Positions 30,048 to 61,062 of a stretch of 64,000 nt of DNA are shown here, piece by piece. Numbering within the stretch: position 1 is the stretch's first letter; the number at the start of each line of letters is the position of its first letter. Location of the stretch: the IMG/VR virus record IMGVR_UViG_3300032167_000083, positions 1 to 64,000 of that record. The stretch is one strand, 5' to 3'. Both the position numbers and the translations under genes were made by a program. This stretch comes from a virus. Lineage: Duplodnaviria > Caudoviricetes. Below the pieces are notes generated by a model. That model worked only from the letters and a program-made list of their open reading frames with translations. It was not told the origin of the DNA and did no database searches.

Positions 30048-30386
30048 ATTAAATCATTCCTTTCGTTTAACTTATGTACCCATCTCATAAGACTACACCT
30101 ATGACACTGAGCTATGCTCAAAATGTAGTTTTGTAATTATATCAGGTATAGAGTAATTTAATACTCAAGCAAGCACACGATAAAGCTCGTATGCTTAATC
30201 AGTATTAAATTGTAATCAAGAATATCAAGTCGCTTTAGGTAAAAATGAGACAACTCAGCAATATCTGAGGTGGTTGCTCCGTCTTTGCTAAAGATATTCT
30301 CTAAAGGAATATATCCTCTTTAAATCACACAATAAAACTCGTATGATTTAAGGAAGAGGGTTCAAGCTGAACCCATTCCTGTTTTA

Positions 30387-31292
30387 TTATCTTTTTAATA
30401 ACCAATCTGAAATTGATAATACTTTTTTGTTGGTTGATTGACCTGAATTAACAGTTAACCATCTCTGGTATTCTAATTCACCATAATGATTAACAATATA
30501 ATCAACAGCAGCACCTAATGTGCTGAATCTCTCTGCCCAAAGAGTGTTACTGTCACTCTTTTCGAACCAATACAAATCAACTTTATCTGTGTTTGGATAA
30601 CACAATATAACAGCAGGCTCTGTATTTGTCCACCCAAACCCTATCGCTTTAAAACATTTTGAGATATTGTATCTCATCATATTTAAACGATATTCCATTT
30701 CTTGTGCCTTTTCCAAGCTGTTAAATTTTTGTTCTTGAAGTACTGGAGCAAAAGGAACATTAAGTTTGTAACTCTTTTCAATAAGAGCATACATCTCTTC
30801 CTCATTGCCCAAATCATCATAGACAGTTGTTTTACCATCTAATTTAATTTCCTCTGTAATCGTATTAGAAATCTTATTGATGATAACAGGACGATTATCT
30901 GACTTCAATAACTCAGAGAGCTTTTTAGCAGCTTCTTCAGCTTCTTTGATAAGCTCATCTGTTGTCCATTTATGTCCATCAGAGGCATAATTGAATGTCA
31001 TATAATCTCCATAATGAGCATAATCCCATCCAATCCATACTCCATCAGGATGATAATCTAACTTACCATTAAAAGTAAGTCCACCATGTACATCTAATGG
31101 AATCTCATCATAATGAGTATTCTCATATTTAGTACCCTTAACATTGAGGTAAGTACATGGATGTGTTCCAAGATTAAGAATAATCCATTCTACATCATCT
31201 GTAGTTCCTGTAGCTAAAGGTCCTACATATCTGGTTTCTCTGCTGTAGTTCATTTCTACAATCTTGTGTGTTCTGTTCATGTTCTTTTTCAT
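30387..31292 (-). CDS. hypothetical phage protein
   Basis: N-terminal HPCTY...VHGGLTF...WIGWDYAH module common in phages. Confidence 0.7.
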   Translation of the reverse strand: MKKNMNRTHKIVEMNYSRETRYVGPLATGTTDDVEWIILNLGTHPCTYLNVKGTKYENTHYDEIPLDVHGGLTFNGKLDYHPDGVWIGWDYAHYGDYMTFNYASDGHKWTTDELIKEAEEAAKKLSELLKSDNRPVIINKISNTITEEIKLDGKTTVYDDLGNEEEMYALIEKSYKLNVPFAPVLQEQKFNSLEKAQEMEYRLNMMRYNISKCFKAIGFGWTNTEPAVILCYPNTDKVDLYWFEKSDSNTLWAERFSTLGAAVDYIVNHYGELEYQRWLTVNSGQSTNKKVLSISDWLLKR

Positions 31293-31426
31293 AGCTTTAA
31301 CCTTTCCCTCACCTATCCAATGAGTCAACTCTAACCATGCAGCTCTTTGAGCACTTGATAGTTTATAATATATTTACTCACCATCAGAGTCGTTTGCTAT
31401 AAATGTCCGAAATTTGTTGCCAATGA

Positions 31427-31483
31427 TGTCTGTTTCGGCTCATGCCATCATCAGGTCCTGGACTTTTACCAGAACGACAGACA
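31427..31483 (-). ncRNA. type III hammerhead ribozyme
   Basis: UGUCU-GUC^-GUUCUGG/CCAGGAC-CUGAUGA-U-GGC AUGA GCC-GAAA-CAGACA: complete catalytic core and stems I-III. Confidence 0.9.
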
Positions 31484-31511
31484 AGAGGAGTTGTTTCACT
31501 CCTCTTTTTGT

Positions 31512-31679
31512 TTAACTTATCATTGCTATGGCTGATAGTATCCATATTGATGCAAATGATACTCCGACAAAAGAGAGTAATTCAAAAAATATTTTTATAT
31601 TTTCTCTCTTTTCGGCTTTTCTTTTTTCTTGTCTTGCGACAAATTCTTCTCTTGTTGATGGTGTTGTTCTTTTTTTCAT
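31512..31679 (-). CDS. small protein with C-terminal TM helix
   Basis: AAGGAAGGA RBS, basic N-terminus, hydrophobic C-terminus. Confidence 0.6.
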   Translation of the reverse strand: MKKRTTPSTREEFVARQEKRKAEKRENIKIFFELLSFVGVSFASIWILSAIAMIS

Positions 31680-31980
31680 AATTATTCCTTCCTTTCCACA
31701 CATCAGTAAAACCCAGAAAAAGTTCCTATATAGTAAAGATTTATATGAACTTTACACTTCTGAGTTTTACTACTTCTACCCATTTCGCCCCACAGTCTAA
31801 AACTTTTATAGGAGCTTAAGAAAAGCTCAAAAGATTACTAAGAAAGTAATCAATTTACTACTAAAATAAGTAGTTATGTACTTAAGATAAGCACTACTTC
31901 TCTTAACCTATATTACACTAATATAGGATTTAATGAAGGTTTTTCGTTCAAGGGGATAACCTACAACCCCATTTTACCTC

Positions 31981-32352
31981 CTATTGAGGAGCAACTACCA
32001 AGCATCCTAATGATGCATAATAATTGGTATCAACATCAACTTCACCATCACAATAAATTAATGGCTCAATTGTTGTGTATTCATCTTCATATGATGCTAT
32101 TCTTGAACCATAACAACATACTACTTTTAGATGAATATTACTACCAATCATATTTGATAGCTCCTCAAGAGTATATTCCTCATCATCAAGAAGAATATAT
32201 CCATCTTCTGTTCCATGACAAAACATAAGTAAGCCATGAGAAGATGAATTAACTACTGCAAAGTCAGCTTGATCAAGACCAACTCTACAAACGTCATTGA
32301 ATTCTTCTTGATTTATAAAGATATACTCTTTGGTACTTACACTATTAATCAT
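31981..32352 (-). CDS. acidic protein, possible caspase/CHAT-fold peptidase
   Basis: LLMFCHG...G.I.L.D...T.EEL...LKVVCCYG spacing resembles the His-Gly/Cys dyad of CHAT domains. Confidence 0.45.
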   Translation of the reverse strand: MINSVSTKEYIFINQEEFNDVCRVGLDQADFAVVNSSSHGLLMFCHGTEDGYILLDDEEYTLEELSNMIGSNIHLKVVCCYGSRIASYEDEYTTIEPLIYCDGEVDVDTNYYASLGCLVVAPQ

Positions 32353-32539
32353 AGTGAATACCTCCCTTCTGTTGTCATATCCAAAGGTTCCGACTATAGC
32401 GACAACTACTATAACCTTGCTTATATGCTCAAGACATATAAGACTAAAGGAAATCTCTTTCCTTTTACTAAACTCTATATAAAATTAACTATATAAAGTT
32501 TAATAAAAGAAAAGAGACTCATTTCTGAGCCTCATTCCT

Positions 32540-37922: not shown

Positions 37923-38636
37923 TTAAATCTCCTCATATAAATGTTTATTAAAATCATTATCCACTATTGTAAAATAGTCGAAAGCATAAGGATAAATAGT
38001 AGACTGTGCATTTTTATCTCCAGAAGGATTATCTTCTGCAAGTTGTAAATATTGTATATAATATCCTTTCATTTCGTAAGGATCTTCAAATTCATCATAA
38101 TAGTCAGTATCGCAAAAATGTCCATATTCAACTATTGCTATACCATAATCAGATTTTAAAATATCATTAGTAAAAATAAATTCTAAAGTAATATTATCAA
38201 TATATTTATTTTCATCAAACCTATCTTTTCTAACACTTTCAACTATTTCTGATTCAGTAATAATAGCTTTAACAATACCAGTATCTTTGTCAATATGTAC
38301 TTTAGATAATATATCAATATTATCTTGATTAGCAACATCAAATACATAATCTACTAATGGTATTCGATTCATACCTTCATCTGGACCAGAGTAAATATCT
38401 TGAGAAATAACCCAACCTGTAAATTCACATAATGTATATGGAAGAATTTCAACTCCTGAATTAATATTTTTACCAAGTGGAATTATGAATGAATGATTTT
38501 CTGATTCTGTATCCATACCAAAAAAATATCCCACAACCCAAGTATTAGGTTCGTATTGTAAATTTTGATTTTCAAAGGTATCTTTAACTTTAGCTTTAAA
38601 TAAAATAAGTTTTTTATTATTTATGTTATTATTCAT
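37923..38636 (-). CDS. YopX-like protein
   Basis: ILFKAK...WVVG...EI.P.TLCEFTG...IF..DIL motifs. Confidence 0.6.
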   Translation of the reverse strand: MNNNINNKKLILFKAKVKDTFENQNLQYEPNTWVVGYFFGMDTESENHSFIIPLGKNINSGVEILPYTLCEFTGWVISQDIYSGPDEGMNRIPLVDYVFDVANQDNIDILSKVHIDKDTGIVKAIITESEIVESVRKDRFDENKYIDNITLEFIFTNDILKSDYGIAIVEYGHFCDTDYYDEFEDPYEMKGYYIQYLQLAEDNPSGDKNAQSTIYPYAFDYFTIVDNDFNKHLYEEI

Positions 38637-60504: not shown

Positions 60505-61062
60505 ATGGCTAAGAAATTATTTTGGAAAAATTATATGGCATCAGAAGATGTTGGTTCTAAATTAGTACATGGTAGATTTTATAACGATGCTGATGAAACA
60601 GCAGAAATTTTTGATGGAGCATTAGTTACTATTGGAGATTTAGAAGATCATGCATTCTATCCTGGTGTAAAAGATTTAAATGTAAGAAAGATTAAGTTTG
60701 CTACTGCTGATACAGACGAGGTGGCAATCGTAGATATCGTTGAGAGATCTCATGGCGATATTATGGGTGTTAACTATCGTGAAGGTATTAAGACTGCAGG
60801 CATGACAGCTTTGGCAGGTATTCCTGTAAGAGTTAGAATCCTTGATAAGCTTGATAGTTTTAATATTGGTTCAGGAAACATTAATGGTGAGGCTGTTATA
60901 GGTGAATATTTAATTCCTGAAGCTGGCACTGGTCTTTGGGTTCCTTCAACAGAAAAAGTAGAAGGTAAGACAACTGTTAAAGTTGAAGGTACAAGTCCTT
61001 TAACTGAGGGTGTAGTTGATACAGATGTTAAATATTTGTGTACAATTGTATCATTGGCTTAA
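60505..61062 (+). CDS. head decoration/minor capsid protein
   Basis: Strong RBS, between scaffold and major capsid. Confidence 0.55.
   Translation: MAKKLFWKNYMASEDVGSKLVHGRFYNDADETAEIFDGALVTIGDLEDHAFYPGVKDLNVRKIKFATADTDEVAIVDIVERSHGDIMGVNYREGIKTAGMTALAGIPVRVRILDKLDSFNIGSGNINGEAVIGEYLIPEAGTGLWVPSTEKVEGKTTVKVEGTSPLTEGVVDTDVKYLCTIVSLA

Follow-up and report, generated by a model that had tools for sequence, protein, structure and literature searches.

The ribozyme locus and its anatomy

The window, by which we mean the whole 64,000-nt stretch of DNA analysed here, comes from an IMG/VR virus record that is 102,205 bases long and has a CheckV completeness of 66%. The record encodes a terminase, a portal protein and a single-subunit RNA polymerase of the Pfam RdRP family (Pfam and PHROG matches), and the stretch is present in DNA runs from animal faecal and gut metagenomes, no RNA run being listed for it; the carrier of the hammerhead described below is a large gut phage. 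The RNA polymerase has its best named relative in Bacillus phage BUCT082 (Spbetavirus), at 42.5% identity, followed by relatives in Enterocloster and Clostridium phages. We take this protein to be a YonO-type single-subunit phage RNA polymerase, an enzyme that may transcribe part of the phage genome. The family model of the hammerhead found no copy in any of the five named phages with a related RNA polymerase, and a search of named phages returned no close DNA relatives for either the region 30300–32400 or the 57-mer itself.

The hammerhead occupies a spacer within a long block of minus-strand genes, mostly small and mostly without known families, and lies on the strand of both flanking genes (Table 1). 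The product of the upstream gene is basic in its N-terminal half and has a hydrophobic stretch towards the C-terminus; it is probably a small membrane protein, and the longer 63-aa reading of the gene has no PHROG or Pfam match. The downstream protein matches phrog_2164, a family of unknown function, at E 6.1e-13; it has no Pfam family and no PDB relative by sequence, and a pattern search plus tblastn found no relatives of it in IMG/VR. Its gene most likely starts at the ATG rather than at the TTG of the mechanical ORF, and this ATG is preceded by GGTGAGGGAAAGG and begins 134 nt after the ribozyme, on the same strand. The same prediction described a terminator-like hairpin just before the ribozyme. 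The hairpin is indeed there, but the U-tract is not: on the gene strand the hairpin is followed by GUCUGUCGUU with no U-run, and the terminator scan flagged the opposite strand only.

Further upstream, a terminator-like hairpin (32533–32514) follows the gene of the HTH_3 regulator. Between a 123-aa gene (32352–31981) and the 55-aa gene, about 300 nt of the minus strand (31680–31980) hold no ORF, and a GGGG...CCCC hairpin stands immediately past the stop codon of the 123-aa gene. No Rfam match was obtained in this ORF-free interval at E up to 0.1 (621-nt search); it could provide room for a promoter or a novel RNA.

Table 1. Position, strand and defining evidence of the features at and around the hammerhead locus (window coordinates)
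Feature	Position	Strand	Basis or remark
RNA polymerase, 679 aa	43024–45063	+	Pfam RdRP PF05183, E 1.6e-12; phrog_8308
HTH_3 (Xre/Cro-type) regulator, 88 aa	32540–32806	-	Pfam, E 1.9e-15; about 1 kb upstream of the ribozyme
Upstream gene, 55 aa	31512–31679	-	GGAAAGGAAGG before ATG; stop 28 nt before the ribozyme
Hairpin, 9 bp, loop of 6 nt	31483–31506	-	Abuts the 5' strand of stem III, sharing U31483
Type III hammerhead ribozyme, 57 nt	31427–31483	-	Sequence, fold, covariation, leave-out model
Stem III, 7 bp, UGUCUGU/ACAGACA	31483–31477 / 31433–31427	-	Opens with A15.1–U16.1
Cleavage triplet GUC, C17 = 31476	Cut between 31476 and 31475	-	Sequence
Stem I, 7 bp (one U–G), GUUCUGG/CCAGGAC	31475–31469 / 31461–31455	-	Sequence
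Loop 1, UAAAAGU, 7 nt	31468–31462	-	Sequence
Core CUGAUGA	31454–31448	-	Agrees with C3 U4 G5 A6 N7 G8 A9 of the hammerhead
Extra U between A9 and G10.1	31447	-	Sequence
Stem II, 3 bp, GGC/GCC	31446–31444 / 31439–31437	-	Sequence
Loop 2, AUGA	31443–31440	-	Sequence
G12 A13 A14 (GAA)	31436–31434	-	Agrees with the hammerhead core
Downstream gene, 301 aa, function unassigned	30387–31292	-	Start ATG 31292; mechanical ORF from TTG 31328

Read along the minus strand from 31483 to 31427, the element is UGUCUGUC GUUCUGG UAAAAGU CCAGGAC CUGAUGA U GGC AUGA GCC GAAA CAGACA. The parts named in the original prediction are all recovered to the base, namely the complete CUGAUGA...GAAA core with its GUC triplet and cut position, the pairing strands of stems I, II and III, and the additional U after A9. 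Stems I and II are closed by loops and stem III is open, carrying the 5' and 3' ends, which is the type III topology; it is also the topology of all 53 distinct relatives among the matches listed. At the junction, A31433 pairs with U31477 as A15.1–U16.1, and the cleavage-site nucleotide H17 is not a G, being C31476 after GU. The G10.1–C11.1 pair is present (G31446–C31437), but U31447 intervenes between it and A9. The minimum-energy fold of the 57 nt is the three-way junction, at -19.5 kcal/mol (z -3.25; 1 of 200 shuffles folds equally well), and this junction is kept together with the upstream hairpin in the fold of a 141-nt context. The three-helix junction is thus given both by the minimum-energy fold and by the covariation of the stems described below.

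Scores, phage-borne relatives and covariation

At the curated gathering thresholds, Rfam gives no match in the window. The Rfam check proposed with the original prediction came out below threshold: at relaxed thresholds RF00008 aligns with the site end to end, but at 20.6 bits it stays below the gathering score of 48.5 bits, with an E value of 0.055 in the 321-nt search with all families and of 0.004 for RF00008 alone over the whole 102-kb record. Seven of the 14 control genomes also give weak RF00008 matches (E up to 10). A lenient hammerhead descriptor, with stems of at least 4/3/4 bp, finds one site in the window and a mean of 0.033 in 300 dinucleotide shuffles, ten of which contain one site. 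Taken alone, the window's own evidence for a hammerhead over a chance match is suggestive only. The relatives score below the Rfam cut-off too, with none of 19 hammerheads in 17 loci reaching the gathering score, and routine threshold-based annotation therefore omits the whole phage subgroup. By comparison, model R2, made from 19 relatives without the window's own copy (three rows of the L002 type, shifted by MAFFT, were dropped), scores 31427–31483 at 78.5 bits with an E value of 1.5e-22, the next match being at 18.2 bits.

The hammerhead is present as a single copy in the window and in the entire 102-kb record. Two candidates for a second copy, both proposed by model R1, were rejected: the stretch 60971–61027 (18.7 bits) has the loop-1 motif but no CUGAUGA/GAAA and lies inside a gene, and in the stretch 38359–38412 (13.6 bits) the stems are broken.

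The exact 23-nt core plus stem II, from CUGAUGA to GAAAC, recurs in 25 other IMG/VR contigs, in which stems I and III differ from those of the window with the pairing kept (stem I being, for example, UACGUGG/CCAUGUA, GUCACGG/CCGUGGC or UACAUGG/CCAUGUA). A second scan, keyed on loop 1 and CUGAUGA with stem II left free, gave at least 117 stretches. Across 126 loci and the window there are at least 129 pattern matches in 127 sources, of which at least 92 are complete hammerheads and 37 incomplete, where complete means that the parser required at least four stem III pairs, favouring the inner part of stem III and leaving stem I free. The complete hammerheads on IMG/VR phage contigs, at least 92 in number, include 53 distinct sequences among the matches listed.

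MAFFT, given the full set of 53, put the 3' part of the group with a short stem II in the wrong place; covariation was therefore assessed in a subset of 23 sequences with a GGC/GAC stem II and in a model-based alignment of 83 matches (47 distinct, among the matches listed). In these two sets, whose rows were chosen by sequence patterns and include many close kin, 93.9% and 91.0% of the cells are paired, respectively, and 11 and 15 of the 17 pairs have changed on both sides. None of 500 shuffles reaches the covariation score in either set, and the paired fraction falls to 27–46% when the partners are slid by one to three columns in the 23-sequence set, and to 33.5–44.0% with slid partners in the 83-match set. 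The core columns are invariant in the 23 family sequences, with CUGAUGA forming part of the search patterns and GAAA demanded by the parser, and H17 is C, A or U and never G among the matches listed, G17 having been allowed by the parser. Because the core of the relatives is constant, their stems I, II and III covary and the leave-out model matches, the window site is a genuine hammerhead, and the type III identity given in the original prediction is upheld.

Conservation at shorter range points the same way. One relative contig, about 97% identical over 31250–31750 (501 nt), carries 15 substitutions and two gaps, none of them in the 57 nt; about 1.7 changes would be expected there by chance, and the observation gives weak support. 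Its sole change in the upstream hairpin element, at 31491, is in the loop. In the same samples, other contigs share a 40-nt core with unlike flanks, which agrees with the spread seen in IMG/VR.

The loop-1 pattern also occurs at 120 or more loci in bacterial and archaeal genomes, at least by this count; among the matches listed there, 11 have an R1 E value of up to 0.01 and five score 50 bits or more, these five being a Lachnospiraceae bacterium, two Woesearchaeota MAGs, L231 and L241. As the pattern has 16 fixed bases and was sought in 596 Gb, most of these matches are chance, and no inference about the host is drawn. The genome contigs L145 and L176, from Candidatus Woesearchaeota MAGs, have model scores of 66 and 63.6 bits; the Woesearchaeota matches reflect either use of the subgroup by archaeal viruses or phage contigs misbinned into MAGs.

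Loops, stem II and the extra nucleotide in the phage subgroup

The phage subgroup has a conserved loop 1, GGUANNAGUCC, an ANGA loop 2, a stem II of two or three pairs and an optional extra nucleotide after A9. With stem II and loop 2 as the search key, loop 1 is recovered as UANNAGU closed by GG/CC; with loop 1 as the key, loop 2 is ANGA in 50 of 53 distinct sequences, the exceptions being two longer loops and one that ends in AGGAU beside a G–U closing pair (all among the matches listed). Each loop is thus conserved when the other serves as the key, as expected if both loops make tertiary contact. Stem II takes the forms GGC/GCC, GAC/GUC, which is a compensated change, and the shorter GC/GC. 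The extra nucleotide is present in 15 of the 53 distinct sequences among the matches listed (U in eight, C in five, A in two) and absent from 38. Since it varies in the family between U, C, A and none, it is a tolerated insertion and not a defect of the window's copy. The best-known example of a hammerhead with an additional nucleotide between A9 and G10.1 is reportedly the CChMVd (+) hammerhead, said to have been described by De la Pena and Flores in 2001.

Among the matches listed, members with a 3-bp stem II divide into eight distinct sequences that lack the extra nucleotide and are cut after GUA, and 15 that carry U, C or A and are cut after GUC; this split may be a lineage effect, or position 17 may be linked to the insertion. 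In loci L002, L004 and their relatives (e.g., L004:3428–3483), stem I has 6 bp (GGRCGG/CCGUCC), C3 is adjoined by an unpaired C, and the loop of the upstream hairpin holds GGGUAAAAGUC, a look-alike of the loop-1 motif.

Predicted cleavage, gene order and comparison with known hammerheads

We consider it about 85% probable that the element is a functional self-cleaving type III hammerhead in an intergenic phage spacer, where it would uncouple two cistrons. What the analysis establishes directly is the presence of the motif, the way it folds, and the conservation and covariation that it shows. Catalysis is predicted from the identity of the core with that of proven hammerheads, and from the arrangement of the locus we infer co-transcription of both genes and the fate of the cleavage products; a promoter may lie inside the 134-nt spacer, which would count against co-transcription. 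The most likely role, by analogy with other phage-borne hammerheads, would be self-cleavage of a multi-gene phage transcript, and such polycistronic processing fits the same-strand gene order at the locus. On transcription of the spacer, the three stems would form around the conserved core and loops 1 and 2 would dock, upon which the 2'-OH of C31476 would attack its own 3' phosphate and cut the RNA between C31476 and G31475. The upstream RNA, with the 55-aa gene, would then end in the 9-bp hairpin, 7 nt and a 2',3'-cyclic phosphate, and the downstream RNA, with the 301-aa gene, would begin with a 5'-OH at G31475 and the 7-bp hairpin of stem I. In this way, the stability and translation of the two cistrons could become uncoupled.

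Our comparison of the flanks across the family reveals a recurrent gene order. A same-strand ORF stop lies at a median of 15 nt upstream of the hammerhead (found in 39 of 53) and a start with a purine-rich ribosome-binding motif at a median of 21.5 nt downstream (42 of 53); among these listed matches, the window's distance of 134 nt from ribozyme to start is among the longest. The start comes within 12 nt after stem III in 11 of 42 cases among the matches listed (e.g., GAAACGGAGG, with the start 7–8 nt on), and this places the ribosome-binding site inside or next to the 3' strand of stem III. Close to the outer end of stem III (10 nt or less), 37 of 52 distinct hammerheads among the matches listed have the end of an uninterrupted hairpin with 6 bp or more, compared with 447 of 1958 random windows (22.8%) from the same loci. 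The 45 nt upstream have a mean minimum free energy of -15.3 kcal/mol for hammerheads among the matches listed, compared with -6.6 kcal/mol for random windows. In 353 same-strand gaps of the same loci that hold no hammerhead, by comparison, the best 45-nt window averages -13.7 as against -15.3 kcal/mol (p 0.025), and the first 45 nt past the stop average -7.9 kcal/mol (p 2e-13). Hammerhead-free gaps thus also mostly hold a strong hairpin, which makes the hairpin a common piece of intergenic furniture, and the distinctive point is that the ribozyme is placed directly after it. The flanking ORFs are rarely assignable, with three of 63 giving any PHROG match at 1e-5 among the matches listed (63 of the 81 listed flanking ORFs were scanned, near-duplicates and the window's own being left out), in agreement with a 2017 review that described small and non-conserved proteins beside phage hammerheads. 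Typically, the setting is a stop codon, a hairpin, the hammerhead, a ribosome-binding site and a start, amid small genes of unknown function.

This order raises the possibility, which we hold only tentatively, that hairpin, hammerhead and ribosome-binding site form a conserved three-part mRNA-processing cassette of phage accessory regions; such a cassette would extend the main explanation rather than compete with it. The hairpin would serve as a cap for the 3' end newly formed on the upstream mRNA, whether or not transcription had stopped there, and in some relatives it would also act as an intrinsic terminator, with the 5' strand of stem III providing the U-run. The downstream cistron would gain a protected 5'-OH hairpin end, and in a subset the Shine-Dalgarno sequence would stay sequestered in the 3' strand of stem III, so that translation would be licensed only once the RNA had been cut and the product released. 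The enrichment of hairpins beside stem III and the starts that follow stem III closely are consistent with this arrangement, as is a group of loci (L090, L122, L125, L044, L119 and L123) in which a 12-bp GC-rich hairpin is followed by UUUUUCUGU, so that the U-run of an apparent intrinsic terminator doubles as the 5' strand of stem III. Against it, hammerhead-free gaps usually hold a strong hairpin as well, and hammerheads may simply land between a hairpin and the next gene; the rows represent non-independent lineages; and the ribosome-binding site in the window is about 120 nt away, so that the unmasking idea does not apply there. If the cassette is real, it would correspond, as a natural device, to synthetic ribozyme insulators, in a subgroup unseen by Rfam-based annotation. 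In synthetic insulators of the RiboJ type, a type III hammerhead before a gene gives the mRNA a defined 5'-OH end with a hairpin, whatever lies upstream. RiboJ is engineered and the window's hammerhead is natural, and the resemblance concerns the suggested effect only.

It is unlikely, in our estimate, that the element is a hammerhead by descent which in the present phage is slow or inactive and survives as a relic or a structured spacer only. It could be crippled by the extra U after A9, by the 3-bp stem II or by poor contact between the loops; the score is under the Rfam cut-off, the extra nucleotide adjoins the core, and slow phage variants with core changes are described in passages of Perreault et al. 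2011 (PMC3088659). The extra nucleotide is, however, shared by the 15 distinct members noted above, and their stems have covaried since, which indicates selection on the fold; according to the same passages (PMC3088659), active hammerheads often have a stem II of just two pairs, and the relative contig without change in the 57 nt argues, weakly, in the same direction. Least probable by far is a functionless chance match to the hammerhead consensus: the motif is short, its Rfam score is sub-threshold and the lenient descriptor matches some shuffled windows, but the core recurs with covarying stems in dozens of relatives from unrelated phage contigs, and these covariation sets together with the leave-out model exclude such a match on sequence grounds.

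The preferred reading, that of an active hammerhead which processes a polycistronic transcript, has precedents in phages and prophages. In the parts of Perreault et al. 2011 (PMC3088659) that concern prophage and phage hammerheads, these are proposed to cut long transcripts into gene-length mRNAs, and polycistronic constructs of about 2 kb are reported to be cleaved in vitro and, in one case, in E. coli. As those parts describe them (PMC3088659), the prophage hammerheads resemble the present one in being intergenic, on the strand of the flanking genes and beside small genes of no constant identity, and also in their consensus core and in a stem II of down to two pairs. They differ in that the common bacterial form is there (PMC3088659) a type II hammerhead with a loop-tail pseudoknot, whereas the window holds a type III hammerhead with apical loops 1 and 2. 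Furthermore, the window's hammerhead has no evident Watson-Crick pseudoknot and is a single copy in the 102-kb record.

Among Rfam families, RF00008 (Hammerhead_3) shares the open stem III, the same core and a 7-nt loop 1 closed by G-G / C-C. It differs from the window's copy in modelling three pairs for stem I where the window has seven, in its longer stem II and loop 2, and in lacking the inserted U.

For the contact between the loops of natural hammerheads, excerpts of Dufour et al. 2009 (PMC2632901) give the motifs UNmYN and RNnA. Loop 2 of the window (AUGA) fits RNnA with its 3' A, and loop 1 (UAAAAGU) has the 5' U of UNmYN and is, like that of CChMVd in those excerpts (PMC2632901), a heptaloop starting with U. 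By comparison, loop 1 of CChMVd is given there (PMC2632901) as UGAAGUG and UGACGUC, with a penultimate pyrimidine, whereas the pyrimidine of the window's loop 1 is last. The CChMVd hammerheads belong to a circular RNA replicon and the window's to a DNA phage, and the extra nucleotide is U in the window and C or A in relatives.

HHphage of the haloviruses HF1 and HF2 is likewise phage-encoded and, according to passages of Perreault et al. 2011 (PMC3088659), lies 13 nt upstream of a start, compared with the family median of 21.5 nt among the matches listed; a 5' end was mapped near its cut site (PMC3088659). HHphage is described in these passages (PMC3088659) as a core variant that needs high Mg2+, in contrast to the window's hammerhead with its canonical core and a gene 134 nt downstream.

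Hammerheads in phage and prophage operons have been in print since 2011, as have bacterial type III forms and stems II of two pairs. Our literature search, outside whose reach most subscription journals lay, found nothing on the present phage subgroup or on the order of hairpin and hammerhead, and members of the subgroup may already be among the Dataset S1 alignments of Perreault et al. 2011. The present results place a natural ribozyme, with good support, in a gut phage and describe the populous phage subgroup of type III hammerheads to which it belongs; they refine known biology rather than change it. The purpose of phage hammerheads was listed as an open question in the 2017 review, and the regular succession of stop codon, hairpin, ribozyme and start offers a concrete, testable idea of it.

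Several observations were made on other hammerhead-bearing contigs. Copies are sometimes clustered, as also described for prophage hammerheads in parts of Perreault et al. 2011 (PMC3088659): hammerheads within 0.5–0.8 kb flank single small genes at L107:1145–1983 (three copies), L032:9579–10403 and L015:2355–2884 (two copies each). The match L092:5045–5128 is 84 nt long and scores 48 bits over the full model, so that it must carry an insertion of about 27 nt; this locus also has tRNA genes and a permuted tmRNA. Other Rfam orphan RNAs, namely drum, skipping-rope and gut-2, score above threshold on hammerhead-bearing contigs (L066:6039–6163, L028:9181–9261, L067:5550–5597 and L031:6734–6781).
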